Below are positions 33,096-64,000 of a stretch of 64,000 nucleotides of DNA, piece by piece (within the stretch, counting starts at the first letter, position 1; every line of letters starts with the position of its first letter). This DNA is from Eubacteriales bacterium (GTDB taxonomy: Bacteria > Bacillota > Clostridia > Oscillospirales > CAG-272), in contig JAZQGR010000041.1 in NCBI GenBank assembly GCA_045540115.1, positions 36,638-100,637 of the forward strand, in the 5' to 3' direction. The position numbers and the translations under genes are program-made. The notes below the pieces were generated by a model. That model made no database searches. It was not told the DNA's origin and saw nothing but the letters and a program-made list of their open reading frames with translations.

Positions 33096-33169
33096 CTTTT
33101 GAGTAGAGGTGCCGAAAAAGATGCAGGACTTAAGTCCATTATCTTTCAAAACTAAAATATAAAAAACAT

Positions 33170-33345
33170 TTTCCCGAGGCAAAAGCTATCGAAATTATTC
33201 ATTATTCATTATTCATCCTTCATTCGAAAATCCGTTCCTTGCTTAATGAAGAATGAAAAATGAATGATGAATAGTGAAGAATACAAACGAAAATCCGTCC
33301 ACTTGCGTGAACGGATTTTCGTTTGGGATGCGGGCCCCAAAAAGA
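33170..33345. repeat. Heptamer (ATTCATT) tandem repeats forming a long imperfect hairpin, plus a perfect 14-bp-stem hairpin
   Basis: ATTCATTATTCATTATTCATCCTTCATT...AATGAAGAATGAAAAATGAATGATGAATAGTGAAG and AAACGAAAATCCGT...ACGGATTTTCGTTT, at the transition into the AT-rich island. Confidence 0.5.
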
Positions 33346-33515
33346 TACAACTGCAAATCAAATGTAAAACGACTAATCGTAAGCAAATACAAGGATTTTA
33401 GTCATCAAGGAATGCTTTTTTATTTTTCTCAGTATTGTTATACTATCTTTTCTGTCCGTTTCGCCGGTGCCAAAAAAGATATATTAGCTCTCTTTATATG
33501 GAGTTCGTAATTTTT

Positions 33516-33845
33516 CTGTATAATGTCTGTATCGTTCAGTTCAAGACTGCAAAAAACATATTGCTGAATACATGAAATTTTATAACGAAAAGCGACCTCA
33601 CCGCGCTAACAATTATAAAACGCCCAATCAAGCCAGAGGAGCTTTTCTGCCAAAGAAAAATGAACCACAGTGTATAAATCACACGGTTCAAAAGTCATTA
33701 CTGTTTTTGGGTTTGCAACCCATTTTTTGATTTTTTGTAAAAAGAATCTTCAATATACAAAAACGCAAAAATCCTGTATTTATCGATAAAAATTGGAGTC
33801 AGTCTCTCGCAGTCCAACAAAACCGTTCAGAACTTGACTCCTATT
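33516..33845 (+). mobile_element. IS3-family (rve/DDE) transposase C-terminal fragment plus right-end repeat (remnant A)
   Basis: Translation gives ...IAEYMKFYNEKRPHRANNYKTPNQ (the YNxxRxH...TPxQ motif of integrase-core transposases). Followed by an ~200-nt region homologous to 42540-42760 and 41320-41602, ending GAACTTGACTCCTATTCAA. Confidence 0.6.
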
Positions 33846-33929
33846 CAACGCAAAATATAGAATTTAACGAATAATAATCATTTGTTTTATATTTAAAGAA
33901 TATTTTATAATAAAACACACAAAAATAAA

Positions 33930-34175
33930 ATGGAATCGCAATTGAATGCGATTCCAAAAGGAGATATTGATTTGTATAAAAAAGGATACACAGCAGAACA
34001 GGAGTATATTGCATGCATAAATTATATATACGATAGTGAACCTGTTACATTCGAACAATTGTGGAGATTTATATCTTTATTTGAACTGACAAAATCTCAA
34101 AAAATAAATCTCATTAACGAAATATTAGATTCTACACTTGTCCTATGTAAAAACTGGACATTTTTTATGCGATAG
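33930..34175 (+). CDS. Hypothetical 81-aa protein (uncertain)
   Basis: ORF in an AT-rich region with a weak RBS; its 3' end overlaps the convergent 69-aa ORF. Confidence 0.25.
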   Translation: MESQLNAIPKGDIDLYKKGYTAEQEYIACINYIYDSEPVTFEQLWRFISLFELTKSQKINLINEILDSTLVLCKNWTFFMR

Positions 34176-34374
34176 CAAATGCTGACTGATAATAAACAGA
34201 CAAATCATCATTAACATCTGAGTACTCCACCAAACCCATGTTAAGAAGTTCGTCAAGAACATTTAAAATTGCTTCTTTATCTGTTATACCTTCTAATGCC
34301 AATTTATTAAATAAATCTGACATCAAAAACGGTTTTTCCATTTCTAAAATGGTTTTTTGAATTATCAAATCCAT
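34165..34374 (-). CDS. Hypothetical 69-aa protein downstream of the HD-domain gene
   Basis: Good GGAGGAATTAAAGT RBS; same strand as, and 77 nt downstream of, the HD gene. Confidence 0.45.
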   Translation of the reverse strand: MDLIIQKTILEMEKPFLMSDLFNKLALEGITDKEAILNVLDELLNMGLVEYSDVNDDLSVYYQSAFAIA

Positions 34375-34450
34375 ACTTTAATTCCTCCGTTAATTTTTGA
34401 TTATAACCGAGCCTCAACATTGTACCACATTATTTCACAAATGTCAATAA

Positions 34451-36502: not shown

Positions 36503-37005
36503 TTGTCAAGTTTTGTAAATTATTAATATCAACTGTATATAAGACACTGCGTGGCCGTTTTCATAATATAATTTTCAAAAGGAGGATTATATCATGAAAT
36601 CTAAATTCACTTATGAAGAAAAACGAGCGATCTTGGCTCTTTACATATCAAATTTCGAGTCTTGCACAAGCATTATTTGGGATGTTAGCATTTCTCAAAG
36701 CACCTTTTACACTTGGCGTTCTGCTTATCGTAAAGAACATGAAGAAGTCAACGTAAGGTGTTAAGCTTACGCAATTCAGATTTGCTTGAAGCAAAGGCGA
36801 GGCGTTTGGAAAGTATTATTGAAATCATCAGAAAAGCCAACGCAATCCCCCAGTGCTCCTCTAAAGCAAAAGCTCTATGTAGCCGAAAAGTTACCGGTTA
36901 ATATAGCGTTCATATGATTATGCTATTGCCTTGAACATTGCTCGTAGAACGTATCAGAATCATTTTCTGCGAAACGAACGATATAATGCGGGACTTGACT
37001 CCTAT
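36503..37005 (+). pseudogene. Degenerate IS3-family element left part (IRL-like end, frameshifted orfA, start of orfB), truncated
   Basis: Hand translation gives MKSKFTYEEKRAILALY...ISQSTFYTWRSAYRKEHEE (orfA HTH), then stop; LLEAKARRLESIIEIIRKA (leucine-zipper region), then stop; then NIARRTYQNHF (orfB N-terminal motif). Ends at the ACTTGACTCCTATT 15-mer. Confidence 0.55.
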
Positions 37006-37009
37006 TTAA

Positions 37010-37807
37010 TTATATATTGTTTACCAAAAAGTCAAAGCAATTATATTCTATCATTTTATGAAAGTTTTGTTGTATTTTTGTTATAAATTCAAACGCTTTT
37101 AAGTCAATATTATACGGATAAAGGGCACTCTTATATAACACAGTATTACGATCATTGGTGTCTAAATATGTTATACGATTAACGGGCGAAAACTTAGTGT
37201 AAAAAAACTCTACGCAGTTGATTTTTTCATAATTGCTTGAAAAAAATGGATAAAAAACATATCGATCGAAGCAGAAATAAGAACAATGTAGTACACGATT
37301 ATTTTTTAGTACATCTTTGATTACATTATAACCATTGGGGCGCAAATGAATATTGTTATTAATTCTCTGAATTTGTAAATCTGATTTATTGATGGCAACG
37401 ACATCATCGGAAATAAATGTGAAGGAATTATTAACTAAATAACAAGTTAATGTTGATTTCCCCCTAGATGTCGGAGACAAAAAAACATATGCCTTATCCT
37501 TTTTTTGAACAGCAGAAGCATGAAACAAAAAATAATCAGGTATCATTATTGAACTTTCATATATGTATTTATTCAAATAATCGACCGGGTCCCTGACAGT
37601 TAGCTCCAAACCATCAACACACACTTTTGATTGAAAACCGTTCAGAACATCAATATGGATATTGTGTGTTGCCTGCGCAACATTTGTTGCATACTCTCCA
37701 TAGGCAATTTCTAACCATTCGTACAAGTGTCTGCTGTTTGTTGTAATACTATATGATGTTGTATGAAATGGTTTTTGGATGGTTAATTTCATTATAATCA
37801 CTTCCAT
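37010..37807 (-). CDS. HPr-kinase-like P-loop protein (HprK C-terminal-domain family), RiPP cluster 1
   Basis: Walker A SPTSRGKSTLT. Comparable in size and motif to the HprK-like kinases at 47096 and 61671. Confidence 0.65.
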   Translation of the reverse strand: MEVIIMKLTIQKPFHTTSYSITTNSRHLYEWLEIAYGEYATNVAQATHNIHIDVLNGFQSKVCVDGLELTVRDPVDYLNKYIYESSIMIPDYFLFHASAVQKKDKAYVFLSPTSRGKSTLTCYLVNNSFTFISDDVVAINKSDLQIQRINNNIHLRPNGYNVIKDVLKNNRVLHCSYFCFDRYVFYPFFSSNYEKINCVEFFYTKFSPVNRITYLDTNDRNTVLYKSALYPYNIDLKAFEFITKIQQNFHKMIEYNCFDFLVNNI

Positions 37808-39348
37808 ACAGATTTGATTTGATCATAGGTAAGGCCGTAACGCTTGGCAATATCTTGAGCATAGCTCTTACCGTCGCTCTTTTCGCGATACACCTTATAG
37901 GTTCGCCTATCGTGATAAATTCCAACTTTCAGATAATCAATAACAGAACGCGAATTTGCTTGCGCATTATACCTTTCCGTTACTTCAACCACCTCGTGAA
38001 GATGAGTTGAAAAGATGCCACGGCATCCTATATCCGTTACACCGCGAATGAAATCGCAAGCTATATATGTTGCTTCATAGGCATTCGTTGATGAAAGCGT
38101 TTCATCCAAAAGTAACATACTATGGGGAGAAAGCTTTTCTACGATTGCCGACAATCTATGACATTCTTCTTCGAGACGACCCATACCATTTCCGCTTTCG
38201 CCGACACTTTTCGGAAAATGGGTATATAAGCCGAGAACCGGACTTATTGAAGCGCTCTCGGCAGGAACCAACCATCCTAATTGAGCAAACACTTGTATGA
38301 TACCAACGCATCGTAAGAAAACAGATTTACCCCCTTGATTAGGTCCGGTCAAAATATAGAATTGTCCTTTTTCATCAAAAGAAAAGTCGTTCTTTACGAT
38401 TTTAGCAGCACCAACCTGCAGTGCAGTGACCGGATTGTAAGCATTTTTTACCGAAAAAACTTTTTCACCCGTTGGGTGAATTATCGGCTTACAAAGAGGC
38501 AGTCGAAGCTCTGTCAAGAAGCGGTGAATTTTTACGCTTTCTGTAAGGAAAATCAAAACGGGTAATGCTTCCAGCAGTTCTTTACACGAATTAGAAAGAA
38601 ATGCGTCAACCGTTGGCTGCCACTGTGATAGGTTCTTTTTAAACCATTTATTAAGTGCCGTATAGATTGTATCATTCATTAAAGATGACTCATGACGATT
38701 CAAAACTTTCGGTGTCGTAAGAGGAGCCATAGAATGAAGGGCGTTAGCATCTTGAACCGATAACAAGCGCTCAATAAGCGTTTTGCTGACGATCGGCGTT
38801 GTGTTGATGGACAGAATCCCGCCGTCTTTGAGTGACAGGTCTTCATTGAAGTTGAACCCAAGAGAAATACTTCTAATTGAGCCGATCTTTTTCAGAAGCT
38901 CTTTAGTTCCCTCTCTGAGCTTCCGATACTCATCTGATTCAGCCATCTGCACAACTTCAGAATAAAAAGCTCTGATAGAATCCGAGGTTGCATTATTAAA
39001 GTGTTCGCTGTTCTGCGTGATCGTGTCAATGCAATGAAAATATATTTCTAGCTGTTTTACAGAATACAGATGTGTCTCTGCAGCATAATGCGCTTCCCGT
39101 ATATTGACCATGTTTTTAATATACCGCAAATCATCAATAACCGAAAGAAGGACAGCATGTAGCTCAGGAATCGATACAAGGTCATTAATGACATGATTGC
39201 GTTCGCGAATTACTACCTCATCTGTAGAAATATACTCAACCAGGTTTAAATCCTTGGAGTACAAGAGATTATTTAATCCCAGATCTGATATCAGTTCGCC
39301 GGCATGATCGAAAGATTCGTCACATTTTTTGATAATAGAATCAAACAT
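37798..39348 (-). CDS. MutS-family ATPase (MutS2-like: core/clamp plus domain V, no mismatch-binding domain)
   Basis: ILTGPNQGGKSVFLRCVG (Walker A), LLLDETLSSTNAYEA (Walker B), STHLHE (MutS ABC signature). Confidence 0.7.
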   Translation of the reverse strand: MFDSIIKKCDESFDHAGELISDLGLNNLLYSKDLNLVEYISTDEVVIRERNHVINDLVSIPELHAVLLSVIDDLRYIKNMVNIREAHYAAETHLYSVKQLEIYFHCIDTITQNSEHFNNATSDSIRAFYSEVVQMAESDEYRKLREGTKELLKKIGSIRSISLGFNFNEDLSLKDGGILSINTTPIVSKTLIERLLSVQDANALHSMAPLTTPKVLNRHESSLMNDTIYTALNKWFKKNLSQWQPTVDAFLSNSCKELLEALPVLIFLTESVKIHRFLTELRLPLCKPIIHPTGEKVFSVKNAYNPVTALQVGAAKIVKNDFSFDEKGQFYILTGPNQGGKSVFLRCVGIIQVFAQLGWLVPAESASISPVLGLYTHFPKSVGESGNGMGRLEEECHRLSAIVEKLSPHSMLLLDETLSSTNAYEATYIACDFIRGVTDIGCRGIFSTHLHEVVEVTERYNAQANSRSVIDYLKVGIYHDRRTYKVYREKSDGKSYAQDIAKRYGLTYDQIKSVWK

Positions 39349-39379: not shown

Positions 39380-39670
39380 TTATTGCCGTGAAATCAAGAT
39401 GTTATTATCAACCATCTCATTAATACACATTTTCATGTCTTGACAGATTTCCTCCAATTCATCGGGGTTCTCTGTATCAAATTCAAAGTAATTTCTCATA
39501 AAGGAGAGCAATTCAATGTCATAAGAGCACTCTTTAAAATAATCGAAAATCCTTGATGATGTTTTGTTTAGAATAATGACTTTTTCATGCTTTTCCAAAA
39601 AAACGATATACTCATCTTCCACATTTTCAATTGAGAGTTCATTATTAACCATCAAATGCTTATATTTCAT
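39380..39670 (-). CDS. PqqD-like RiPP recognition element (RRE) protein
   Basis: MKYKHLMVNNELSIENVEDEYIVFLEKHEKVIILNKTSSRIFDYF...LEEICQDMKMCINEMVDNNIL has a PqqD-like pattern. Start taken at MKYKH, 28 nt after the rSAM stop. Confidence 0.55.
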   Translation of the reverse strand: MKYKHLMVNNELSIENVEDEYIVFLEKHEKVIILNKTSSRIFDYFKECSYDIELLSFMRNYFEFDTENPDELEEICQDMKMCINEMVDNNILISRQ

Positions 39671-39698
39671 ATGTATTCCTTTCATTGATTCTTTTTTC

Positions 39699-41003
39699 CT
39701 ATTGTTCTGCAATTTCATAAACAAGGTATTCTGGGCTCTCTTTAACAAGCTTTAAGTATTTGTTATTATATTTTGTGTCGTTAATCAATTTTTCATAGTA
39801 CTGCTTCCAATACAGTCGCTTACATTCACATTGTTGGGCAAACATTTGCGGTGCTTCTTTGGCTCTTAACGGGCATCCACCTCCGCAGTGAATAAATGCA
39901 ATGCAGTTTTTGCATATCTGGTAATAGTCAGAATAATGTTGAGACGAAATGTTATCACATACATCGAAAAACTCTAACTGCTCGTTCTGTATATTACCCA
40001 AGACAATATTAGAATTATGATCATCTAAACAGTTCAATATTCGACCGCTTGCATCAAGCCAGGGGTTATTGCCATACGCCGCCCCACAATTATCACAACT
40101 TATGAACTGCTTAAAATATGACGATCTAAAATTTATAGGCAACTTGTGTAAATAAACATGTTCTTCCAATCTTACATATTCTTTTACAAAGTTATTATAC
40201 GAACTAGCATGCTTTTTCGCCCTTCCCTCGGGCATTACTGGCTCGATATCCCAAGAGCGAAGATTGGGGAACTCCGTGCTTATATAGTTTGCCATTTTTG
40301 TGAGCAATCCATAATCATCCGGCCAAATTGTTGTTCTAATTGAAAAGTTGAATTTTATTGAGTCCAAATATTTGAGTGTTTTATATACAAATTCATGGGT
40401 ATCATAACAACTTGAACTGCAACGATTTTTATTTTGTGTTTCGGGATTTCCATCATATGATACCATTATGGAATCAAAGTTCGATTCTAAAAATACGACT
40501 TGATTTGTATTCAAAACCCCGTTAGTGGTTATTCCTAAAAAAACAGGAATTCCATGTCGAGCAAAAACTTCTCGAATATATTCTACCGATTCAGTAAGTA
40601 ACGCCCAATTATAGGTCGGCTCTCCCCCTCCCGCAAAATATATTTTGGGAGTATTATAGAGTAAATGCATCTTTTTTCTGATTATTGCATTTTTCACGAA
40701 CCAGTTAACAAATGTTTTCACTTGGGAGAAAGACAATTCGTCTCCTTGCGTTTTGGAGTCAAATGAACAATAATTACAGGAAAGATTGCACCTATTTGTT
40801 AGGCTGATTCCAACTGATAAAGGCATTTTCAGTTTAATGTTATAGGGATCATTATTGTAGGTAATATGGCCAAAGTGAGCTGAGCAATTCTTTGGATCAC
40901 ATTCAACTTTTATTGGGATTAGAGAGGTGACATCAGTTTTTTTTACATATACTCTGTTGTTCAAACCATCAATCAAAACTTTGGCATCGGAATAAGGCAA
41001 CAT
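39699..41003 (-). CDS. Radical SAM / SPASM-domain peptide maturase
   Basis: CxxxCxxC (LTNRCNLSCNYCSF), glycine-rich FAGGGEPT, C-terminal SPASM Cys cluster (CDNCGAAYG...CKNCIAFIHCGGGCPLRA). GGAGG RBS. Confidence 0.8.
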   Translation of the reverse strand: MLPYSDAKVLIDGLNNRVYVKKTDVTSLIPIKVECDPKNCSAHFGHITYNNDPYNIKLKMPLSVGISLTNRCNLSCNYCSFDSKTQGDELSFSQVKTFVNWFVKNAIIRKKMHLLYNTPKIYFAGGGEPTYNWALLTESVEYIREVFARHGIPVFLGITTNGVLNTNQVVFLESNFDSIMVSYDGNPETQNKNRCSSSCYDTHEFVYKTLKYLDSIKFNFSIRTTIWPDDYGLLTKMANYISTEFPNLRSWDIEPVMPEGRAKKHASSYNNFVKEYVRLEEHVYLHKLPINFRSSYFKQFISCDNCGAAYGNNPWLDASGRILNCLDDHNSNIVLGNIQNEQLEFFDVCDNISSQHYSDYYQICKNCIAFIHCGGGCPLRAKEAPQMFAQQCECKRLYWKQYYEKLINDTKYNNKYLKLVKESPEYLVYEIAEQ

Positions 41004-41048: not shown

Positions 41049-41231
41049 TTAGATGTTTTGAGCTACATTAGCAACGCAACCGGCCGCCGGTCCGCTCATA
41101 CATACTCCTCCCGAGGTGCATCCCGGGAATTCGAGTGAGCGACAGTCGCCAGATCGCGCTAGTGCCTTGATATCGTTAAGCGCCTTTGAATCAATAACGG
41201 TTATTTGATGCTTTTCATATTTTGTTTTCAT
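41049..41231 (-). CDS. Cys-rich RiPP precursor peptide 1 (60 aa)
   Basis: MKTKYEKHQITVIDSKALNDIKALARSGDCRSLEFPGCTSGGVCMSGPAAGCVANVAQNI. GGAGGAATATT RBS. Four Cys in the C-terminal core; directly upstream of the rSAM gene. Confidence 0.65.
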   Translation of the reverse strand: MKTKYEKHQITVIDSKALNDIKALARSGDCRSLEFPGCTSGGVCMSGPAAGCVANVAQNI

Positions 41232-41319: not shown

Positions 41320-41602
41320 AATATTAACTTGTAAAATCCCCGAAATTATTTTGTTTTTCGATTTATTTCGAATTAAGTTTATTGAATTTGATGAAATATG
41401 CGAAAGAACGATTTCCTAAAACGGTTATTAAAAATCAAAATCTCCAATGGAAGATCCGCGTCTATCATTGGAGACTATTATGTAGTAGCGATAATCCAAT
41501 CCGAAAACTAAAGAATGCCGACGTTTCAGTGAATGGGGACCAACGAAATAGTCAATATTTACAAAAAAATAAGTCAAGCCTCAAAGTCTGTTTAGAACTT
41601 GA
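41320..41602 (+). repeat. Third copy of the IS3-family right-end region (no transposase body), ending TAGAACTTGACTCCTATTCAA
   Basis: Homology to 33620-33845 and 42540-42760 (for example GTTTTTCGATTTATTTCGAATT versus GGTTTTTCGTTTGGAACTCGATTTTTGAATT). The terminal 22 nt are nearly identical to remnant A. Confidence 0.45.
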
Positions 41603-42760
41603 CTCCTATTCAAAAGATGAAGAAATAAATTACAAAAAGCGATATGAAATACTAAAAAATACCAAGCCTTCCTCAAGGCACAACGAGAGAAAAAGTAATA
41701 TTTATCAATATGCACATCGAAGAATACTCACTCGACAATATGTGTGAGGTGTTAGATATTTCGAAGAGAACGTATTACAAGTATCGTGCAGCAGAAGATA
41801 AAGACTACTACGACTACCTTTTGATCAAAGAAATGTTTGATGAATCAAAAGGCACGTACGGTTATAGTAGGATTTGTGATGGCTTATTGGTTAAATATGG
41901 TGTAATATTTAACCACAAAAAGACAGCAAGAATCATGAAAAAGTATGGTTTAAAGCCGGAGTATATTAAACGCATCAGACCAAACTACTCAGCTAAAAGG
42001 CAAGAAGAAAACGTTAAACCGAATTTGCTCAAAAAGAACTTTAATGTTAGTGAACCCAATCGGGTGTGGGTTACAGATATTACGTATCTGATCTTTGGCA
42101 ACAAACGAGCTTATCTATCTACTATTCTTGACCTTTATGATAGAAAAATCGTTGCGTATCAGATCTCGAAACGCAACGACATTAAATTAGTTATTGATAC
42201 ATTGAATCAAGCTATTGCTAAAACGAAGGATGCATCAAGCCTTATCATTCACAGTGATCAAGGCTTTCAATATACATCCTTCGAGTACAAAGCCGTATGC
42301 GAATCTAATGGGATACAAATTTCCATGAGTCGAAAAGGCACTCCGATCGACGATTCCCCCATTGAGAGTTTCCATAGCATACTGAAAAAAGAAACTTTGT
42401 ATAACAATTATATCACATCTTTCGATGAATATCTACTGCTTGTTGAGGATTGTTTGAATTTCATAATACTTCAAAAGCAAAAAACAGGAAGAGATGAGTT
42501 CTCTTCCTGCCTTTGTCGTGGTTTTCTATTCTTGTGAACTAAATAGGGTTCACTTCACTTTTCTACCAAAGAAAAAAACCGTAGTGTCTAAATCGCGCGG
42601 CTCAAAAGTCGTTACTGGTTTTTCGTTTGGAACTCGATTTTTGAATTTTTACAAAAACGATTTTAAATGGGCGAAAATATAAAAAGCCTGAATGTATCGA
42701 TAAGAAATAGCAGTCATTTTCTCACAGTCCAATAAAGCTGTTGAGAGCTTTGCCCATATT
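41603..42760 (+). mobile_element. IS3-family element right part: orfA C-terminal fragment, orfB (integrase core, 41710..42537, C-terminus degenerate) and IRR
   Basis: orfB has the DDE/rve core (VWVTDITYL...HSDQGFQYTS...). The region upstream is in a different frame with stops, so it is frameshifted and probably a pseudogene. The 3' region is homologous to remnant A. Confidence 0.65.
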
Positions 42761-51413: not shown

Positions 51414-51422
51414 TTTCTTCTC

Positions 51423-55572: not shown

Positions 55573-56133
55573 TTTGGTTTCCTTTCCGTTTGGCAGAAGA
55601 ATGGTATGCAGAAGAAGCAGTAACTTCTTCTGCACAGTAGTTCCGCTGCCAAACATAAAAAATCATGTTCAGAATTGGAGGATCATCGTATTTATTACAG
55701 CCCCCGACGATCCGCAAGGTGCTAAGAGGCTGTCAATTTTTCCTCTGCACAATTTGTAGGGGAGGTTCGGAGTACCTTGCAGCATGCATGTCATGACTTC
55801 TTTCATGACAACAAGGATCATATATGGCGTAGAGGCATTTTCAGCACGAGACGACCATATCACGCCCACCGGCGAGCCGCTGTTAACGGAAGTCTCATTA
55901 TTCACCACTCGGGGTTATGGCCTACGAAGCAATGCTGTTTACTGCTCCGCCCTCCCAAAGTTTATCGCTCGCTCCCGTAAGAGGTCCTGGCGCCTTTGTT
56001 TGGCGGCTTTCCTTTCGGCCCGAATGGGTTCTTCCTCGGAATCCCATCTATTCAATTGTCAAACGAGGCCACAATTTCTTTTTTGCCCCTCACTCTGTAT
56101 TCCACAATTATTTTCGATTTAACAACCAAAAGA

Positions 56134-57069: not shown

Positions 57070-57366
57070 TTATTGTTGCCAAATAATTGGCTCCTTATTT
57101 TTCCCATTCATTGTTTGTGTAGTTGCTTCGATATCTTTCAAAACTTGTAAAATTTTGTTTGTCGTATTCATTTCACCAATCAACAGCTTAGAGTCTGGAA
57201 TTTCACATTCGAATTCATCCTCGACACCAACAATGATTTTAATGAAGGTAATAGAATCCATGCCAAGTTCAGATAGATCATCATCAAGCTTATCCTCGGT
57301 TACTTCTGCATTCTCGATGTTTGCGTTTAATATTTCTATGACTTTTCCAACAGTTATTTCTTTCAT
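57070..57366 (-). CDS. Acyl/peptidyl carrier protein-like (phosphopantetheine-attachment motif)
   Basis: LGMDSITFIKII matches the PP-binding DSL/GxDS motif. 98 aa, acidic. Confidence 0.6.
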   Translation of the reverse strand: MKEITVGKVIEILNANIENAEVTEDKLDDDLSELGMDSITFIKIIVGVEDEFECEIPDSKLLIGEMNTTNKILQVLKDIEATTQTMNGKNKEPIIWQQ

Positions 57367-58259
57367 TCAGATACTCCCATAAAAATACGCTTATTGATTG
57401 CAATTTTCTCATGATCTTTTTCGGTTAAATCGTCTTTTATCAAATCATAAAGATTACTTACTTCCAAGCGAGTATTGAAATCACATTTCCATTCTTTTCG
57501 TTCTTTAGCGCACAAACCGTAACAATTAAGTAAAGCTTCACCCTCTGGAGTTCTGAAAGCTTCTATGTATTGCTTAAGAATCTCATCATCAAACACCTGA
57601 CCGGTGTAATATAGAATATAGAACATGTAAGGAATGATCTCATATTCAGCACTCATTGCGTAAAGCTTGTCTAATGGAATTGTATCAAGATTGTTCTTTA
57701 GCAAATAATATACATCTTTGAACATATCATATTTGATACTCTTTCGAGTGGCAAGAAGGAAAATAGAGTTCATATCTTTGTAGTGGTGTAAAATGAGCTG
57801 AACCATTGCTTTTATCGGTGGCAATGTTTTAACCTTTACGCCGTAGATCGCCATTTCTATTGTGTCAGAAAGAAATTCTTCTATGTCAATTCGCTTGCCT
57901 TCGTATTCGCCCCAGAACAAGTCGAAATTTATATCGATAGTGATTTTTCCAAAATGTTCCGTTAATTTGCTCCAAGCAGAAGATTGATGTGACAGAATTA
58001 GTGTTAAGATTTGATTATACCGCCCCGTGGTTTCTTTGGCAAACCCGGAATGAATTAAATCGTTCTCGATATCTCTCATTTTTTTGCGAGCGATTAAAAA
58101 ATCTATATCAGAAGAACGACGTAGTCCTTCTTTACCATATATTAATTTAGTGAGCGGTTCACCCTTAATAATAGTATAACAAAGTAGATTCGTATTCAAT
58201 GTTTGATAAAAATACCTTGAAGCTATTTTGTATAATATAGAGTCTATTCCTGTACTCAT
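57363..58259 (-). CDS. Nucleotidyltransferase-fold protein (NTP_transf_5-like)
   Basis: GLRRSSDIDFLI fits the minimal nucleotidyltransferase hG[GS]...DhD motif. ATGA overlap with the ACP gene. Confidence 0.5.
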   Translation of the reverse strand: MSTGIDSILYKIASRYFYQTLNTNLLCYTIIKGEPLTKLIYGKEGLRRSSDIDFLIARKKMRDIENDLIHSGFAKETTGRYNQILTLILSHQSSAWSKLTEHFGKITIDINFDLFWGEYEGKRIDIEEFLSDTIEMAIYGVKVKTLPPIKAMVQLILHHYKDMNSIFLLATRKSIKYDMFKDVYYLLKNNLDTIPLDKLYAMSAEYEIIPYMFYILYYTGQVFDDEILKQYIEAFRTPEGEALLNCYGLCAKERKEWKCDFNTRLEVSNLYDLIKDDLTEKDHEKIAINKRIFMGVSE

Positions 58260-58272: not shown

Positions 58273-60018
58273 TCACAAATCAACTTCCAACTGTTCAATT
58301 TGTGTATTATAAAGTTTCGCATATGCACCATTCATATGCATTAATTCCTTATGGGTTCCTTCCTCCACTATTTTTCCATTTTCCATATACAGAATCCTAT
58401 CAGCTTTGATGGCAGTAGAAAGTCTATGTGTAATAAAAATAGTAGTTTTGTTTCCAGAAACTTCGCATATTAGATCGTTTAACTCTTTTTCCGCTATAGG
58501 ATCAAGAGATGCATTGGCTTCATCAAAAATTAAAATATCACCTGTTTGGTAAAGCAGTCTTGCTATTCCTATCCGCTGCGTTTCGCCACCCGAAAAAACA
58601 AGACCTTCGTCATCATAATCTCTGTTAACTTGAGATTTTATACTGCATGAGTACTTATCCATATTAACCATTTGTAAAACGGAATTAATGTCTTTATCCA
58701 AATAGTTGTTGCTCATTGCAATGTTTTCGCCTAAAGGAATGGAATACAAGGATAAATTTTGAAAACAACACGCAAAACAGGCTCTTATCGAAGATACATT
58801 CATTACTTCATAAGGTACATCATCCATTAGTATTTCACCAGCAGTTGGCTCATAAAATCTTAGAAGCAACTTGAGTAAGGTGCTTTTTCCAGCACCATTG
58901 CGCCCTACGATAGCAACCTTTTCTCCTCTCTTTAGCTTGAAATTGATTTTTTTCAAAGTAAGATCTTTGTTTTGTGGATAAGAAAAATTTACATTTCTGA
59001 ATTCACAGATGTGGTTAAAATGTGCATGAATTCCGATGTGATAATTTTCCATTAAATCATTATCTAAAAAACTATAGATTTTATCAGCATACAATTTATG
59101 GGCTTTAAAATCTGTAATTGTTGAAACAACACTTTTTATACTATTTCTAAAGCTATTGCAAGCATTGAACATTGAAGCAAAAGATGCTATTGTATAGTAG
59201 CCAAATATTATCCTAATTCCTAAATAAAGCCACGTAACTAAAGTAAATAAAACAACGATTATTGATTGAATATTTTCTGCAAGCATGTTTTTTGAAGAAT
59301 ACTTTTTTATAAGAGCAATATTTCTATCTGTACAAGTACGCAATTGGTTCTTTAAGACATCACCGATCCCACTACATTTGGCATCATATATAAATGACTT
59401 GTCATACATAATTCTGCCGATATAACTTTCCTGACGATCCAAGGAAGCCTTCTGATTTCTATACTCATAATCATTTTTTACTTTTATTAATTGTGGAATC
59501 AAACCTATTACTGCACTAAAAACTGCAAAAACAATCAAATATGGGTCTGTGGTTACTATAAGTGCTATAACTGTTCCAATTGAAGCAAATAGACTCATGA
59601 TATTAACGCATGATTTCCAAATAGCAATACACCTAATATCAATATCTTGAGATGCTAACACAAAATGGTCGTAGAAATCAGGGTTGTCAAAGTTTCTTAC
59701 TTCGGATCGTTTTACAGCCTCAATAATATCTAGTTTAAATATCATTGATATTCTTTTTTCTCGTGTAGGCATGTATATGTGCGATGCATATCCATCCCAG
59801 ATTAGATTCACCAAATTAAGGATAAACATTGCCAACAAAATAAGTAGCGCCTTAATAACACTTTTATCATCAGCGATGCTTTCCAAAAATAATTGTAGAA
59901 AAAATATATCAATAAGTGGATTGATAATTCCAACAGGAATCGCAATTAAAGACACAAACATATACTGTTTGTCAATTTTCAATAATTGCTTGATCATCCT
60001 CAGAATAGAATTTTTCAT
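58273..60018 (-). CDS. ABC exporter, fused permease and ATPase, RiPP cluster 3
   Basis: TM domain, then Walker A GRNGAGKSTLL, signature FSGGETQRIGIARLL, Walker B ILIFDEANASLD. Confidence 0.8.
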   Translation of the reverse strand: MKNSILRMIKQLLKIDKQYMFVSLIAIPVGIINPLIDIFFLQLFLESIADDKSVIKALLILLAMFILNLVNLIWDGYASHIYMPTREKRISMIFKLDIIEAVKRSEVRNFDNPDFYDHFVLASQDIDIRCIAIWKSCVNIMSLFASIGTVIALIVTTDPYLIVFAVFSAVIGLIPQLIKVKNDYEYRNQKASLDRQESYIGRIMYDKSFIYDAKCSGIGDVLKNQLRTCTDRNIALIKKYSSKNMLAENIQSIIVVLFTLVTWLYLGIRIIFGYYTIASFASMFNACNSFRNSIKSVVSTITDFKAHKLYADKIYSFLDNDLMENYHIGIHAHFNHICEFRNVNFSYPQNKDLTLKKINFKLKRGEKVAIVGRNGAGKSTLLKLLLRFYEPTAGEILMDDVPYEVMNVSSIRACFACCFQNLSLYSIPLGENIAMSNNYLDKDINSVLQMVNMDKYSCSIKSQVNRDYDDEGLVFSGGETQRIGIARLLYQTGDILIFDEANASLDPIAEKELNDLICEVSGNKTTIFITHRLSTAIKADRILYMENGKIVEEGTHKELMHMNGAYAKLYNTQIEQLEVDL

Positions 60019-60019
60019 G

Positions 60020-60325
60020 CTATATCAATACCTTTGCAAGTATGTTTTCCTTTAAAAAGGGCGGATCTGGTAGTACTACATTGTCACCTTTTGTTATAAC
60101 CATATCAGTGTCCATTTCTATGATGCGGTGTGCAATAATCTTGTTGTCATCTTTATATAGCACAATGTCGCCCACACAATACTCATTACTACTGAGCTTT
60201 ATAGCAGACAAAATAGAGGCCTCGTTCAAAGCAGGTTGCATGCTATTACCATATAATTTAAAGGTGAATATCTTTCCGCTCGGCATCGACTTGATTATAT
60301 TATAAAACAAATCGGCTATTTTCAT
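60020..60325 (-). CDS. S24/S26-family serine peptidase (signal-peptidase-I/LexA-like), candidate leader peptidase
   Basis: YGNSMQPAL (Ser nucleophile box, compare GDSMxPTL) and GDIVLY; 101 aa; 2 nt from the ABC gene start. Confidence 0.55.
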   Translation of the reverse strand: MKIADLFYNIIKSMPSGKIFTFKLYGNSMQPALNEASILSAIKLSSNEYCVGDIVLYKDDNKIIAHRIIEMDTDMVITKGDNVVLPDPPFLKENILAKVLI

Positions 60326-61368
60326 TTGTTAACAACCATATCATCAAACATTTTTTTTATTGATTTAGCTTTTAAACAACATTGTTTTTGATCATATTCC
60401 TTTCGTGCTGGACAGTATTCACACAATAATTTTAAATTACAGGAATAGCATTCGGTATTCTCGTCAATTTTCTTTGAAATTCTATCTGCTATTTTTCCAC
60501 ACCAATCAATAGGCAGATCTTGGACATTCATCAATGTAATATCAGAAATGCAAGTTTTAATATTTCCCATCGGATCGCACGCTATGCCAACTTTTCCGGC
60601 TCTACATTGAAACTCATTATGTTTATACAAGGAGAGATTATTGTCCTCAACGATCTTGTACAACTTTTCTATATGATTAAAAAGGCCGTTTTTCATTTTA
60701 ATGAATTCAAGTAATTCATTCTCATCAAGTATTAATGAAGAATTATGCCCATTAAACTCCACATCATATCCATATCTGTAATCACAAGCCAACTCTTTTT
60801 TTACAAATTGTTCAATCATATCAATTTCCCGAAAATTGGTTTTCATTACTGGAGTTTTTAATGTGATAGGAATCCCTAACGCCTTTAATTTAATCACATT
60901 TTCTATCAGCAAATTGAAGGATCCTTTCAATTGCGTTATATACTCATGGGATTTCGAGTGGCTTCCATATATTGATGTTTCAATGCGATTAGGAGGGTGC
61001 TTTTTAAATTCATTCAAGTGCTTTTCGTTGAGAAGTAAGAGGTTAGAAAAGATTATGATTTTTGCTCCTTTATTCCAAAGATATGAATAAAGTTCGAGAA
61101 AATATGGAACCACCAACGGTTCTCCTCCCGATATGACAAAAAGAAATATGCCATTGGAAATAAAAATATCACAAGCACGCTTCCACTGCTCTAGACCTAG
61201 TTCATTTTCAACACATTCTTGATTAATATAACAATGTGTACATTTCAAATTGCATTTATAGGTTAATTCCAAATGGATGCTTAACGGTCGGTGTACCATA
61301 TTGAATATATCGTCATAGTTACCCCGAGCAAATTTTTCTACAACATGTATATTGTCTTCATTTCTCAT
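60322..61368 (-). CDS. Radical SAM / SPASM-domain peptide maturase
   Basis: LTYKCNLKCTHCYIN (CxxxCxxC), ISGGEPL, C-terminal Cys cluster (CYSCNLKLLCEYCPARKEYDQKQCC). Confidence 0.8.
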   Translation of the reverse strand: MRNEDNIHVVEKFARGNYDDIFNMVHRPLSIHLELTYKCNLKCTHCYINQECVENELGLEQWKRACDIFISNGIFLFVISGGEPLVVPYFLELYSYLWNKGAKIIIFSNLLLLNEKHLNEFKKHPPNRIETSIYGSHSKSHEYITQLKGSFNLLIENVIKLKALGIPITLKTPVMKTNFREIDMIEQFVKKELACDYRYGYDVEFNGHNSSLILDENELLEFIKMKNGLFNHIEKLYKIVEDNNLSLYKHNEFQCRAGKVGIACDPMGNIKTCISDITLMNVQDLPIDWCGKIADRISKKIDENTECYSCNLKLLCEYCPARKEYDQKQCCLKAKSIKKMFDDMVVNK

Positions 61369-61655
61369 TTCTGTTTTTCGATAACCTCATTTTCACGCAA
61401 AGATGATATTACATCATCGATATCATTTTTTATTTGCTCAAATGGAATTTGGAAATACTTTCTTTGAAATGATTCTTGAATATCCTCAATAGTAAAGCCT
61501 TGACGAATAAGTTGATATATTTCTATAGCTGAAGTGTTTAATACCAGTACGTTATTGTCATTTCTATTATTTGAAACAAGTGCGAGGTTAGTGTCATCCC
61601 CGTATTCAATTATACCAGATTTGATTTTGTATTTTGTCTTATCATTAGCACTCAT
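61365..61655 (-). CDS. PqqD-like RRE protein
   Basis: The 96-aa product is small and acidic (LVLNTSAIEIYQLIRQGFTIEDIQESFQRKY...DIDDVISSLRENEVI). It sits between the kinase and the rSAM gene, as in clusters 1 and 2. Confidence 0.5.
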   Translation of the reverse strand: MSANDKTKYKIKSGIIEYGDDTNLALVSNNRNDNNVLVLNTSAIEIYQLIRQGFTIEDIQESFQRKYFQIPFEQIKNDIDDVISSLRENEVIEKQK

Positions 61656-61670: not shown

Positions 61671-62510
61671 TTAATTAACTTCTTTATTAAGGTAATCAAC
61701 AATAGAACTGTCAGGTTTAAATTCTAGAATATAGCTTTGTACTTGACTAGAAAATTTTTGAGCGTTAAGTATAGTTTTTAACATTAATTTTTTATCCCAT
61801 ACAGGGTAATATATTTGTTTGGATAGCAAGGAAAACATTTCTTCAGATGAAATGCGATTAATATGGTTTAATTGATCTTTGCTATGACGCAAATAAATAA
61901 CGTTTTTTGCTGTAGAGGTTAAATTATTAATTGTGTTATTACTGCTTAGCCAATATCCAGCATTAATACTAGAATTTAAAGAGACAATTATTCTTTCATC
62001 ACTTAATATTAAAAAACCATTTTTTTGTAATATTGAACTTAATGTGCTTTTACCAGCTCCGCTTTGCCCAAAATATAGAAATGTTTTATTGAGATTAGAT
62101 GCGGCACCACCGTGCAAGACCAATTTGTTTTTTCTGGATAATATATCTGTCCATAGAAAGTCTTCCAAAGGAAGTGGCAGTTCAATCGGAATATGCGTAT
62201 CTTTATAATAAATTTGACATGTTTTTTTGGAAGGAATGTAATTTGCAATTATTCTGCTGTCAACTCCCAGTGTGATATAATACTCATTTTTGTGTTGATT
62301 CTTATAAACAAAAATATTATCATTAGAATACACTAAATTTGACCGTTCAACTTGTTCCCAACAAAAAAAAACATTTTCAGCGAGACTGATTCTCAAATCT
62401 ACGCATTGAGTATCGCAGGTAAATTCCTCCAGTAATGTTTCATGACCCAAAGTAATCGGATATACATATTGACATTTGACCGTTGAAATTTTAACGATTG
62501 TTGATTTCAA
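61671..62510 (-). CDS. HPr-kinase-like P-loop protein
   Basis: LYFGQSGAGKSTLSSIL Walker A. Confidence 0.65.
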   Translation of the reverse strand: MKSTIVKISTVKCQYVYPITLGHETLLEEFTCDTQCVDLRISLAENVFFCWEQVERSNLVYSNDNIFVYKNQHKNEYYITLGVDSRIIANYIPSKKTCQIYYKDTHIPIELPLPLEDFLWTDILSRKNKLVLHGGAASNLNKTFLYFGQSGAGKSTLSSILQKNGFLILSDERIIVSLNSSINAGYWLSSNNTINNLTSTAKNVIYLRHSKDQLNHINRISSEEMFSLLSKQIYYPVWDKKLMLKTILNAQKFSSQVQSYILEFKPDSSIVDYLNKEVN

Positions 62511-62594
62511 AAATATTTCATTCCTTTCTCAAAGTCAGTATAAAAAACGTGTGATCACTCTAACCGTAAAATAATAATCGAAAATTCAGGTTAT

Positions 62595-62647
62595 AGAGAC
62601 TGTATTGTATTTATAACCATATTATTTTAAAACACAATACAGTCTCT
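62595..62647 (-). terminator. Strong hairpin (14-bp perfect stem) between the precursor and biosynthetic genes; candidate attenuator or partial terminator
   Basis: AGAGACTGTATTGT...ACAATACAGTCTCT begins 8 nt downstream of the precursor stop on the minus strand and is followed by an A/T-rich tract. Confidence 0.45.
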
Positions 62648-62654
62648 CCCTCAT

Positions 62655-62792
62655 TTAGCTTTTACAAGGTTTTTGCGTAGTTTCGAGCTGATTGCTAGAA
62701 CAACCTTGCACGGATTGATTATTTCTACATGCTCCAATAGCACATAGTAAATCTTCCAGATTCATGATTGTAACTGTCGGTCGAATATACAT
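62655..62792 (-). CDS. Cys-rich RiPP precursor peptide 3 (45 aa; not in the ORF track)
   Basis: Hand-translated MYIRPTVTIMNLEDLLCAIGACRNNQSVQGCSSNQLETTQKPCKS, with a strong GGAAGGAGGTTAGAAC RBS and four Cys; directly upstream of the kinase/PqqD/rSAM operon. Confidence 0.6.
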   Translation of the reverse strand: MYIRPTVTIMNLEDLLCAIGACRNNQSVQGCSSNQLETTQKPCKS

Positions 62793-63662
62793 GTTCTAAC
62801 CTCCTTCCGTAATAGTAATTGATGGACATTTCTAGCGTCCATTTAAAATCATTCCAAAACTTCAAATTGCAAAGGAACTTGGCTTGAGTTTCGATAAAAA
62901 GCATAATTGCTTATACAAATAATATTACAATACAGTTAATATGAAACCCACTATAAATAAAAGCATAGGCTGCACCAAGACTGGCAATAAAAAGTTTCAA
63001 AAAAATCATTGACTTTTATATTTCCAAACATATCCGAGCATGAATAAATTGTTTTTCAGTACAGTCATTTTTCTCCCTTTTATTCAAATGAGTTTAATAA
63101 AAATTATCAATGTAAGCTGTTTCGTATTTATTATAACATGCGCTTCTGTATTTTGCAATATTTAAAATGATGGATATTGAAATTTCGTTAAATTTAGACA
63201 TATAAGTCTCGATTTTTTATAGTTTTCACATCATATTCTTTGTTAATTTGACGAAAATGCACTCTCCGGGCGTTTCATTTTGGGGCATAACTCTAATACT
63301 TAAGGATACGAACATATGCGCTTTAGATTTGCCTGTAGCCATACATCTGTTACTTGTTCCCCGTATACTAGTTTTGATATATGCCTTTGTCTGGGAGTGA
63401 GATAGCATGGGCACAGCAAATAACGAAACGAGGTCATAATATGAATAATCTCGTGGCGTTGCCACTCTCACTCAAAGCGATTCCCTATATGTTTCTCATC
63501 GAGCGTTCCTGGCCACGCGGCTCCTTCAGTCTGCTTCACAGACAGCTTCATCACGGAAAAAACCTTTGTCACAAAACGTTCTGCACTGGCTCTTATTTGC
63601 TTTCTTCTCGCCAGTAAACCTCTTTCCAACCGCACGAATATCGCGTGATTTTCGTTGCACAA

Positions 63663-63708
63663 TAAAAACAGATCGTAGCCGATCACCTCAGCTACGATCT
63701 GTTTTTAC
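63663..63708. terminator. Bidirectional intrinsic terminator
   Basis: AAAAACAGATCGTAGCCGATCACCTCAGCTACGATCTGTTTTT. Confidence 0.55.
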
Positions 63709-63842
63709 TTATAAAATTCCATTAACGCAGTACAAACAAGCTACATATACCGCCTTCCGACCAAGCAGCCGCTTTAATATACGAAGATATTTGCTCGGCC
63801 CTCAAGGTAGTACAACTAGGTCGTTTCCAACTTTTTTTCATA

Positions 63843-64000
63843 TTAAGCTCCTTTCTTATTTATAATTTTATTAAGTAAATTTATAATGTTTGCAATGTAT
63901 GTTCTATTCAAGCTATATAAAATAGTTTTGCCCTCATTGCGTGTTTTAACCAACCCCGCTTTTGTCATAATATTAATATGGTGATATGCTGTAGATCCGG
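63843..64000 (-). CDS. ArsR/SmtB-family transcriptional regulator, C-terminal part (N-terminus beyond the window end)
   Basis: Minus-strand translation gives ...AYHHINIMTKAGLVKTRNEGKTILYSLNRTYIANIINLLNKIINKKGA*, matching the ArsR recognition-helix/wing motif (VSHHLKxLxxAGLVxxRxEGRxxxYSL). Confidence 0.55.
   Translation of the reverse strand, partial: GSTAYHHINIMTKAGLVKTRNEGKTILYSLNRTYIANIINLLNKIINKKGA

Follow-up and report, generated by a model that had tools for sequence, protein, structure and literature searches.

Three divergent radical SAM/HprK-like peptide loci in a mosaic, probably acquired AT-rich region of a gut Eubacteriales genome

The right half of a 64,000-nt stretch of contig JAZQGR010000041.1 (assembly GCA_045540115.1, positions 36,638–100,637; the whole stretch is hereafter the window), from an uncultured gut Eubacteriales bacterium, contains three loci for putative peptides made on ribosomes and modified after translation (RiPPs): locus A (37.0–41.2 kb), locus B (43.1–48.1 kb) and locus C (57.1–64.0 kb, continuing past the window end). 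Each pairs a radical S-adenosylmethionine (rSAM)/SPASM enzyme with an HprK-like P-loop protein of ~265 aa (Table 1). All three rSAM enzymes match Pfam Radical_SAM and have a CX3CX2C motif and a C-terminal CX2CX5CX2-3C motif of the SPASM type, with a Pfam SPASM match in locus B, and a PqqD-like RiPP recognition element (RRE) accompanies them in every locus (above the Pfam threshold in C, weak in B, detected by a custom profile only in A). ATP-binding cassette (ABC) exporters are present in loci B and C, and locus C is the only one of the three with an ER-type signal peptidase, an NTP_transf_5 protein and an acyl carrier protein (ACP). An earlier note on this DNA had described three paralogous rSAM/HprK-like loci; three loci are indeed there, with paralogy at the superfamily level only. 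Identity is 25–36% among the HprK-like proteins, 23–27% among the rSAM enzymes and 28% between the ABC exporters, and similarity among the HprK-like proteins is confined to 56–83 residues at the P-loop; the three loci are thus not paralogues of recent origin. Judged by this sequence divergence, they are old lineages of one cassette type gathered together, not duplications.

Table 1. Features of the window from the left border of the AT-rich region to the window end
Feature	Position	Strand	Evidence or remark
GC-rich, hairpin-rich non-coding stretch	32740-33110	.	ends in terminator-like hairpin 33057-33105
Heptamer (CATTATT-type) inverted repeat (33190-33285), then second hairpin	33190-33325	.	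read in sequence
IS3-family right-end remnant	33530-33848	+	transposase C-terminal tail 33572-33730, rve_3 E 0.0018
SAMHD1/dGTPase-like HD phosphohydrolase, 666 aa	34451-36451	-	PDB phmmer: HD phosphohydrolases/SAMHD1, 1e-10 to 1e-7
IS3-type OrfA (HTH_Tnp_1) fragment	36594-36764	+	Pfam 26 bits, cut-off 24.1
Locus A HprK-like P-loop protein	37010-37807	-	HprK_rel_A E 8e-11
Locus A MutS-domain-V/KamC-like ATPase	37798-39348	-	Pfam MutS_V E 7e-24
Locus A small protein, 122 aa, probable PqqD-like RRE	39380-39748	-	custom profile only
Locus A rSAM/SPASM enzyme	39699-41003	-	rSAM_PapB E 1.7e-29, 103 bits (cut-off 340)
Locus A candidate precursor, 60 aa, 4 Cys	41049-41231	-	core start RSGDCRSLE; leader ...IKALARSGDC as in metagenome precursors
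Degenerate IS3-family element (decayed orfA + orfB)	41382-42761	+	rve E 2.8e-27, 95 bits (41382-42537); HTH_21
Locus B ABC exporter, permease/ATPase fusion	43063-44856	+	ABC_tran E 1.6e-29; MsbA/NHLP-type matches
Locus B rSAM/SPASM enzyme	44853-45947	+	Pfam Radical_SAM + SPASM; best NCBIfam ScmE, 99 bits (cut-off 400)
Locus B hydrophobic protein, 185 aa	45947-46504	+	gene called in L084-L089, 189 aa in relatives
Locus B candidate precursor, 86 aa, 5 Cys	46507-46767	+	leader MFYKPKLIEISIEEL...IRIKA aligns with family
Locus B PqqD-like protein, 87 aa	46840-47103	+	sole match weak: ScmD E 0.0014, 18.8 bits (cut-off 100)
Locus B HprK-like P-loop protein	47096-47893	+	HprK_rel_A E 1.2e-10
Remnant of 186-aa gene (3' of HprK in relatives)	47896-48123	+	internal ~324-nt deletion
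Possible XRE/Cro-type helix-turn-helix fragment	48444-48644	+	HTH_26 E 0.034, below threshold; no NCBIfam match
Three tandem recombinase genes, SR1, SR2 and SR3	48899-52988	-	Pfam domains
SR1, complete large serine recombinase, 548 aa	48899-50545	-	Pfam
SR2, Recombinase + Zn-ribbon, no catalytic resolvase domain, 292 aa	50535-51413	-	Pfam
SR3, complete large serine recombinase, 521 aa	51423-52988	-	Pfam
DinG/YoaA-family helicase	53332-55656	-	YoaA E 1e-94
Sigma-70 region-4 protein, 184 aa	56134-56688	-	Sigma70_r4 E 7e-5, sigma70-ECF E 3e-8, both below cut-off
Locus C acyl-carrier-like protein	57070-57366	-	PP-binding E 3.7e-10
Locus C NTP_transf_5 nucleotidyltransferase-like protein	57363-58259	-	NTP_transf_5 E 3.4e-15
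Locus C ABC exporter	58273-60018	-	ABC_tran E 2.4e-27
Locus C ER/archaeal-type signal peptidase I-like protein, 101 aa (GNSMQP ... AHRII)	60020-60325	-	TIGR02228 56.6 bits (cut-off 51.85)
Locus C rSAM/SPASM enzyme	60322-61368	-	Radical_SAM E 1.6e-17
Locus C PqqD-family protein (RRE)	61365-61655	-	Pfam PqqD 37.6 bits (cut-off 23.4)
Locus C HprK-like P-loop protein	61671-62510	-	HprK_rel_A E 1.5e-7; P-loop GQSGAGKST
Locus C candidate precursor, 45 aa, 4 Cys, C-terminal Ser	62655-62792	-	leader RPTVTIMNLEDLL aligns with family
Locus C precursor of conserved ~36-aa family, 39 aa (W39), MKKSWKRPSCTTLRAEQISSYIKAAAWSEGGICSLFVLR	63722-63841	-	phmmer
ArsR/HTH_20-type regulator gene, 3' end	63843-64000	-	HTH_metalloreg E 5.6e-5; HTH_20; rest beyond window

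The three HprK-like proteins of the window align with their relatives around an invariant His, the GKST of the P-loop and, 16 residues further on, an Asp, which is the core pattern of HPr kinase/phosphorylase (HprK/P; family consensus H-x14-20-G-x-S-G-x-GKST-x15-16-D). The invariant positions are H98, GKST118–121 and D137 in locus B, and H96, GK, T119 and D135 in locus A, whose Walker A motif (SPTSRGKST) deviates from the consensus and whose subfamily keeps the deviant pattern x-x-T-x-x-GK[TS]T. A PDB sequence search with the locus B protein was uninformative. Its AlphaFold (AF2) model is confident (pLDDT 87, pTM 0.83) and was matched by Foldseek to ATP-dependent phosphoenolpyruvate carboxykinase (PEPCK; E 1e-7) and HprK/P (E 2.5e-5, TM 0.52 on target); with these as the best solved-structure matches, assignment to the HprK/PEPCK fold is sound, and on the model the protein is a putative kinase. 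The curated families were approached at a distance: the three proteins scored 41.5, 41.0 and 30.8 bits against HprK_rel_A and 27.7, 20.5 and 23.4 against HprK_rel_B (cut-off 200), and none matched ScmC at E ≤ 0.01. Word-based searches with the window proteins returned few close relatives (14, 1 and 3), and an exhaustive HMMER search with the locus A protein retrieved, at E ≤ 1e-3, 476 representative clusters, of which 134 reach E ≤ 1e-10; the majority are 260–280 aa and aligned from end to end. HprK_rel_A was matched weakly by 41 of the 41 top relatives scanned and ScmC, also weakly, by 12; an orthologue of the B type carries a precomputed faint Pfam ScmC match.

To delineate the cassette, metagenomes were scanned with a 12-sequence HprK-like alignment, yielding 79 loci whose open reading frames (ORFs) were annotated by phmmer with the window proteins as queries (numbers with L denote retrieved loci and contigs). 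Among the 37 loci with at least 3 kb of flank, an rSAM gene lies within 10 kb in 30, an S24-like gene in 26, an ACP-like gene in 19, NTP_transf_5 in 18, an ABC gene in 14 and a MutS-like gene in 3. The usual order is HprK-like, S24-like (~240–250 aa), rSAM (~340 aa), ACP-domain protein (~400 aa) and NTP_transf_5; in L091, the sole locus given a Pfam scan, the S24 peptidase is a 250-aa fusion with PqqD, above threshold. A second operon on OCQB01001027 mirrors locus A, with a helix-turn-helix (HTH) regulator, a precursor, a 197-aa gene, two MutS-like genes, a 91-aa gene, an rSAM gene, two ABC genes and an HprK-like gene. NCBIfam already names cassettes of the HprK-like/PqqD/rSAM-SPASM kind (ScmC/D/E, HprK_rel_A/B, GeoRSP). 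The earlier note had called the enzyme combination unusual unless the pairing turned out to be broadly distributed; it is recurrent and conserved, so the description falls on the note's own terms. In other hosts the cassettes are AT-rich within GC-rich flanks: the flanks in L085 and L099 have 53–61% GC, and in L099 a cassette of 26–37% GC abuts DNA of 53–59% GC.

Two or more HprK-like/rSAM cassettes, often divergently transcribed, also stand next to each other elsewhere: in L109 (2596–14817), where a B-type locus lies beside the common HprK–S24–rSAM–ACP–NTP cassette, in L091/L123 (OCQB01001027) and in L084 (1–5148). By these examples the clustering of several such loci is recurrent and not specific to the window. 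In L091, NTP_transf_5 is followed at 14901–17303 by a gene for an 800-aa protein with weak alpha/beta-hydrolase (Peptidase_S9/esterase) matches, which may be a further tailoring or processing enzyme and has no counterpart in the window.

The window contains four candidate Cys-containing precursor ORFs of 60, 86, 45 and 39 aa (A60, B86, C45 and W39), sharing a common leader pattern and one invariant Cys. The precursor consensus is a leader of the form [KR]P-x5-L-x3-EL-x3-I-x-A-A-A-R-S followed by a core with an invariant first Cys. A small-ORF search of the retrieved loci disclosed a family of ~36-aa precursors, such as MKDWKKPVVVELSAEQLAKHIKAAARSGICHFGDFR, in more than 20 loci; relatives of W39 were found beside HprK-like cassettes more than 20 times (phmmer E 5e-8 to 1e-3). 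By tblastx, a pair comprising an ArsR/HTH_20-type regulator and a precursor is conserved in more than 20 loci, usually with the precursor just downstream. The ArsR gene at the right end of the window, listed in the earlier note as a fragment and a mobility hallmark, is thus a regulator of the RiPP locus that is cut by the window edge. For two of the four candidates, B86 and W39, orthologues beside the same enzymes are known from other loci; NCBIfam gave no known precursor family for any of the five peptides scanned. About half of the short family cores contain C-x3-D/E-[FY]-R; within the window, C-x3-D/E is clear in A60 (CRSLE) and B86 (CNEHE) and absent from W39 and C45. Directly after A-A-A-R, a Ser or Thr is nearly invariant in most family precursors. 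At its end the leader reads A-A-A in the family and A-L-A in locus A, and A-x-A is the cleavage pattern of type I signal peptidases. Cleaved there, the mature peptides would be only about 9–12 residues long.

The locus A rSAM enzyme carries CX3CX2C at residue 72 and CX2CX5CX3C at residues 364–377. Residues 37–118 of the small locus A protein match a profile built from the family's own PqqD domains (E 5.6e-5, single target); neither Pfam nor NCBIfam matched this protein. The best full-length match of the MutS-like ATPase is NCBIfam KamC (residues 85–457 against model positions 78–434 of 508), PDB matches are to MSH2/MutS2, and similar genes occur in L091, L094 and L123. MutS_V ATPases without mismatch-binding or Smr domains lie inside rSAM/HprK-like operons here (37798–39348) and in L091 (4467–7366) and L094 (5423–6850). 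KamC is the reactivase ATPase of a radical (B12) enzyme; that the MutS/KamC-like ATPase might by analogy help the rSAM enzyme is pure speculation.

In locus B, window 43062–47998 is 87% identical in DNA over 4.9 kb to L084–L089, which are human-gut and other contigs, with unrelated flanks. The rSAM enzyme combines CX3CX2C with a C-terminal CX2CX5CX3C. The 86-aa precursor is conserved in L084–L089 and L109 with all five Cys kept, and the PqqD-like gene is conserved in L084–L089. The 185-aa protein has no Pfam or NCBIfam match; its hydrophobic segments suggest a membrane or immunity protein. In relatives the cluster is fuller, continuing from the HprK-like gene with a 186-aa gene, S24, NTP_transf_5, ACP and three small genes; in L085 it abuts RepA_N, ParB and ArdC genes in DNA of 55–61% GC. 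In blastn, the window remnant of the 186-aa gene aligns with L084 10804–10906 and 11231–11349 and nothing beyond, homology ending at 48123. The ~324-nt deletion in this gene and the stop in homology indicate that locus B is truncated and its distal genes lost.

In locus C, the rSAM enzyme has CX3CX2C plus CX2CX5CX2C and matches AlbA and NirJ2 below their cut-offs, and the signal peptidase-like protein has a weak Pfam Peptidase_S24 match. The ACP/NTP_transf_5 pair is 73% identical in DNA to the matching pair of L084. A weak match of the ACP to the model for a peptide maturation system acyl carrier-related protein hints at acylation. Between the two locus C precursors lies a ~0.9-kb interval (62800–63720) with a patch of locally higher GC (0.42–0.47 at 63.4–63.8 kb); none of its ORFs matches a family, and none of the retrieved loci resembles it.

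Composition separates these loci from the DNA to their left. The left 33 kb contain ordinary chromosomal genes, among them nagA and genes for an RsmF-type rRNA methyltransferase, a glycosidase and a major facilitator superfamily transporter. In 1-kb windows GC is 0.42–0.53 over 1–33 kb, 0.35 at 33–34 kb, 0.28–0.36 over 34–49 kb with a single window at 0.42, 0.40–0.44 over 49–57 kb and again 0.30–0.36 from 57 kb through the window end; the average falls from ~47% to ~33% at 33.1–33.2 kb, and 200-nt steps place the drop at 33.0–33.4 kb (0.56, 0.44, 0.35, 0.33). GC at third codon positions (GC3) falls into three classes: 0.47–0.58 in core genes, 0.23–0.34 in most genes of the RiPP loci (the locus A MutS-like gene being the exception at 0.38) and 0.41–0.46 in the recombinase block. 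The sharp change near 33.1 kb claimed in the earlier note is therefore borne out, as are the AT-richness of the RiPP loci and the intermediate composition of the recombinase/helicase/sigma block at 48.9–56.7 kb (~43% GC); the hairpin and the heptamer repeat lie at the boundary where the note had put them.

The flotillin-like gene just left of the border (31307–32695) encodes a protein identical to one on a 3.3-kb contig of a Eubacteriales metagenome-assembled genome, and that contig is ~99.4% identical to the window over 3.2 kb of DNA; relatives of the protein are labelled Oscillospiraceae, Acutalibacteraceae or Clostridia and come from animal and human guts. The GC-rich stretch that follows (32740–33110; RNA fold z-score −5.6) is the last sequence that the window has in common with contigs from its own or a closely related organism; it also forms the left edge of the composition shift. 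The L003 alignment reaches 33092 and the L002 alignment 32940, whereas L001 leaves the window at 32704 and carries a Y1-type (IS200/RAYT-like) transposase gene there (L001 3359–3838). Segment 33012–33125 recurs in L002 (37–145) and L090 (5546–5582, 5794–5894) at 85–88% identity. A GC-rich hairpin cluster after the flotillin terminator, with a Y1 transposase in a sibling strain, resembles a REP/RAYT-type repeat system. The adjacent 33190–33325 segment is kept in a related species, where it stands elsewhere with respect to the flotillin gene (L016 2381–2515, 79% of alignment columns); it may represent the end of a mobile element or a structured small RNA. Rfam assigned no family to the border hairpins at the gathering score, the E-value threshold giving chance-level matches only, and reading 33030–33060 as a tRNA or tmRNA 3′ end was rejected (none by ARAGORN or Rfam). 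Related species share only a three-gene module (29970–32660) and nothing downstream of it; with only this module in them, neither an empty site nor an att core was recovered.

Rearrangement is evident inside the AT-rich region. The insertion sequence (IS) remnants of the IS3 family anticipated in the earlier note were confirmed at 33572–33730, 36594–36764 and 41382–42537; the remnant at 33530–33848 is 77% identical to L090 3272–3586 and related to the right end (42568–42761) of the degenerate element that follows locus A. L090 also matches window 36865–38028 at 95.6%, with different genes beyond. In all, the points where contigs from this organism or a close relative end or part from the window are 32704, 32940, 33092 and 36865. 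Farther right, the predicted DinG-like helicase and sigma-70 region-4 protein were found. The three tandem serine recombinases expected beside them are present as genes: SR1 and SR3 are complete, and SR2 has no catalytic resolvase domain. DinG–SR3–SR2–SR1 is kept as a unit in three IMG/VR contigs (L170–L172; DNA identity 71% and 66%), in which the helicase upstream of the matching recombinase triplet is 71% and 49% identical to that of the window. SR2 is full-length in the relatives (L170 4047–4922, 76%; L172 12278–13138, 60%), and this conservation between two complete serine recombinases argues for a functional accessory subunit, not a pseudogene. Homology of the module to L170–L172 ends at the SR1 stop codon (48916–48935), where the GC of the window also shifts, and in L172 pilin, sortase and MazF genes lie upstream of the module. 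Phage and plasmid collections matched only the recombinase catalytic core within 48.85–56.75 kb. The XRE gene of the earlier note came down to an HTH-like match below threshold.

Between the border and locus A lies the HD phosphohydrolase gene, whose Pfam HD match is weak. It is probably outside the RiPP locus, an IS remnant standing between the two. Lying between IS3 remnants with small ORFs nearby (33930–34374), this 666-aa protein may be a nucleotide-depletion defence gene product unrelated to the RiPP loci.

The region is a mosaic, horizontally acquired accessory region in which an integrative conjugative element (ICE) is not demonstrated. The foreign, mosaic character that the earlier note proposed is upheld by the divergent junctions in related contigs and by the 87% identity of locus B to clusters with other flanks, and the IS3 copies together with the DinG/three-recombinase integration module rearranged the region after acquisition. 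As a whole, we consider it probable that the accessory region runs from ~33.15 kb to at least the window end in this uncultured gut bacterium, that its cargo is three clusters of one widespread, apparently uncharacterised rSAM RiPP family with the maturation route proposed below, and that the IS3 and recombinase module rearranged it later.

In this route, the PqqD element would bind the precursor leader, and the rSAM/SPASM enzyme would install one or more Cys thioether cross-links of the ranthipeptide kind. PapB cross-links Cys to Asp or Glu within CX3D/E motifs (PMC9413430); given the C-x3-D/E cores and the PapB-like best match of the locus A enzyme, a ranthipeptide-like thioether is the most likely core modification. 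The HprK-like protein would then phosphorylate a peptide Ser or Thr with ATP, as its lasso-peptide homologues do: in lasso precursors, HPr kinase homologues phosphorylate the C-terminal Ser (PMC8498205, PMC9266682, PMC4289311). For pseudomycoidin, a nucleotidyltransferase adds a hexose to the phosphate installed by the kinase (PMC8498205, PMC9266682), and NTP_transf_5 may extend the phosphate as PsmN does, with the ACP possibly supplying an acyl group. A signal-peptidase-like enzyme would cut after the A-x-A at the leader end; this motif and the PqqD fusion in L091 point to the cassette peptidase as the leader peptidase. The ABC pump would finally export a very short cyclic peptide.

Several observations weigh against this interpretation. 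Each chemical step is one that we infer from sequence and by analogy, and no window protein reaches the curated cut-offs of PapB, ScmC/D/E or HprK_rel_A/B. The Walker A motif of the locus A kinase-like protein deviates. Only some half of the short precursors carry C-x3-D/E. Most family precursors terminate in [FYW]R, so that a lasso-type C-terminal Ser target fits the 45-aa peptide only, and no orthologue of the 45-aa or 60-aa peptide was detected in small ORFs of the retrieved loci. AT-richness alone could be a property of the clusters rather than a sign of recent transfer; empty site and att site were not found, and the right border lies beyond the window. A broader claim is put forward more tentatively, as possible: that the cassette of HprK-like kinase, S24/signal peptidase plus PqqD, rSAM/SPASM enzyme, ACP-domain protein, NTP_transf_5, ArsR-type regulator and ~36-aa precursor (W-KKP...EL...IKAAARS-x2-C-x4-[FY]R) may constitute an uncharacterised RiPP class widespread in gut Clostridia, whose products would be ultra-short (~9–12 residues), thioether-cyclised peptides freed by an A-x-A-specific leader peptidase, possibly phosphorylated or decorated, and maybe signals rather than antibiotics.

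Other histories of the region were weighed against the same evidence. The earlier note had taken its mobility genes as hallmarks of integrative or conjugative elements, and were the whole of 33.1–64 kb a single ICE with the RiPP loci as cargo, the recombinases, helicase and sigma-like gene would fit, as would the RepA_N/ParB/ArdC genes that adjoin the B-type cluster in L085 and the pilin, sortase and MazF genes upstream of the matching module in L172. Yet Pfam and NCBIfam scans of the 33–64 kb ORFs gave no relaxase, coupling protein, VirB4, type IV secretion system or other transfer gene; no att repeat and no long direct repeats flank the island or the recombinase block within the window, which was a check the note had proposed; and ARAGORN found no tRNA target there. 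With three IS3 remnants in addition, no single intact ICE is shown, and the three composition classes, the truncated cluster B and the divergence of related contigs inside the region at 36865, not at its edge alone, make this history quite improbable. A narrower version, in which the DinG–recombinase element starts at ~48.9 kb, extends rightwards with locus C as cargo and was inserted into a once-complete B-type cluster, is unlikely, though it has more to recommend it: the missing genes of B (S24, NTP_transf_5, ACP and the three small genes of L084) would then lie past the far end of the element, beyond the window. It fits the abrupt stop of locus B homology at 48123 inside the 186-aa gene, the stop of module homology at 48916–48935 with its GC change, and the variable junction at which the DinG–SR3–SR2–SR1 order ends in L170–L172; it is at odds with the ~0.8 kb of unrelated sequence with an HTH fragment between the two break points, with the 324-nt internal deletion, which is decay independent of insertion, and with the GC3 of locus C (0.23–0.32 against 0.41–0.46 in the module).

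That the region is instead ancestral to the lineage, its low GC reflecting selection on the clusters or their expression and not horizontal transfer, is very unlikely. In its favour, every host examined shows AT-rich cassettes, which could make the bias an intrinsic one, and no empty site was recovered; against this, related species share nothing downstream of the 29970–32660 module, contigs from the window's own or a closely related organism differ in their junctions, IS and recombinase genes lie scattered among the clusters, and hosts whose flanks have 55–61% GC carry the same cluster at 87% identity. The identity of the cargo was questioned as well. If the loci were defence or cofactor-maturation systems, with the rSAM enzymes, kinase-like proteins and MutS-like ATPases acting on nucleotides or proteins, one could account for the weak PADLOC matches of the locus A rSAM enzyme to prokaryotic viperins (E 2e-11), for the SAMHD1-like HD protein adjoining locus A and for the resemblance of the MutS-like ATPase to KamC, a radical-enzyme reactivase. 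The viperin matches, however, reflect the generic radical SAM core, PADLOC is blank for the kinase-like, MutS-like, HD and NTP_transf_5 proteins, and the best NCBIfam matches are all peptide maturases; together with the PqqD domains, ABC exporters and signal-peptidase-like enzyme in the loci and the short Cys-containing precursors adjacent in more than 20 loci, this renders a defence or cofactor role extremely improbable. A mosaic, acquired accessory region with RiPP clusters as cargo therefore remains our preferred reading.

Of most value is that a widespread, apparently uncharacterised cassette could be defined together with its precursor family. New peptide chemistry, narrow-spectrum antimicrobials and signals can be drawn from the rSAM RiPPs of gut anaerobes, and the window presents one such cassette in three divergent examples within a single genome; comparison with metagenomes contributes a precursor family, the probable site of cleavage and the tailoring enzymes, which form a fixed set. 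These provide concrete targets, namely the residue modified by the kinase-like enzyme and the contributions of the ACP, NTP_transf_5 and MutS-like proteins. If true, a role for an HPr-kinase fold in radical SAM peptide maturation would be new biochemistry, as would a MutS/KamC-like ATPase helping a radical SAM enzyme, and the mobile-DNA context indicates transfer of such clusters among gut Firmicutes that differ widely in GC content. No paper that we found places an HprK-like enzyme within a radical SAM RiPP cluster or describes this precursor family, which is weak evidence given the incomplete literature searched; within it, SynChlorMet is not mentioned.

Among known systems, the mobile module resembles Firmicutes integrative elements with tandem large serine recombinases, having two complete recombinases and a third recombinase-domain gene, the DinG–SR3–SR2–SR1 arrangement of IMG/VR contigs and, in L172, typical accessory cargo; it differs in the middle gene without a catalytic domain, and the window has no transfer or phage structural genes. 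The peptide loci share the HprK-like + PqqD-like + rSAM/SPASM logic of SynChlorMet (ScmC/D/E/F), GeoRSP and HPr-rel-A cassettes: the locus B rSAM enzyme and PqqD-like protein have ScmE and ScmD as their best matches, and all three kinase-like proteins match HprK_rel_A/B. Every match is well below cut-off, however, so the window proteins are distant relatives, not members, and with no curated cut-off reached the loci are not assigned to the SynChlorMet, GeoRSP, HPr-rel-A or PapB-type families. To our knowledge, genome context alone defines the SynChlorMet, GeoRSP and HPr-rel-A cassettes, and no product of theirs is known. With PapB ranthipeptides (freyrasin), sactipeptides and SCIFF peptides, the loci have in common the rSAM/SPASM enzyme, the RRE/PqqD, a precursor with leader and Cys, and ABC export; PapB is the best match of the locus A rSAM enzyme, and many family cores carry its C-x3-D/E. 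They differ in that the PapB model (NF047865) scores only 103, 70 and 36 bits with the rSAM enzymes of A, B and C (cut-off 340), that most cores here are very short with a single Cys, and that HprK-like, NTP_transf_5, ACP, S24 peptidase and MutS-like ATPase components are undescribed for those classes in the literature searched; a compendium of rSAM RiPPs (PMC10288494) does not mention a kinase, nucleotidyltransferase or ACP. Within the same literature, HPr kinase homologues occur in RiPP clusters only for lasso peptides (PMC8498205, PMC9266682, PMC4289311). The lasso tailoring pair (PadeK/PsmK + PsmN) likewise unites an HPr-kinase-fold enzyme and NTP_transf_5 in a RiPP cluster with PqqD/RRE, a pair carried by locus C and by complete B-type clusters, and the 45-aa peptide of locus C ends in Ser. 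Unlike lasso precursors, most precursors of the present family end in [FYW]R, and neither a lasso cyclase nor a B2 protease is encoded in the window; macrocyclisation would here be the work of a radical SAM enzyme.

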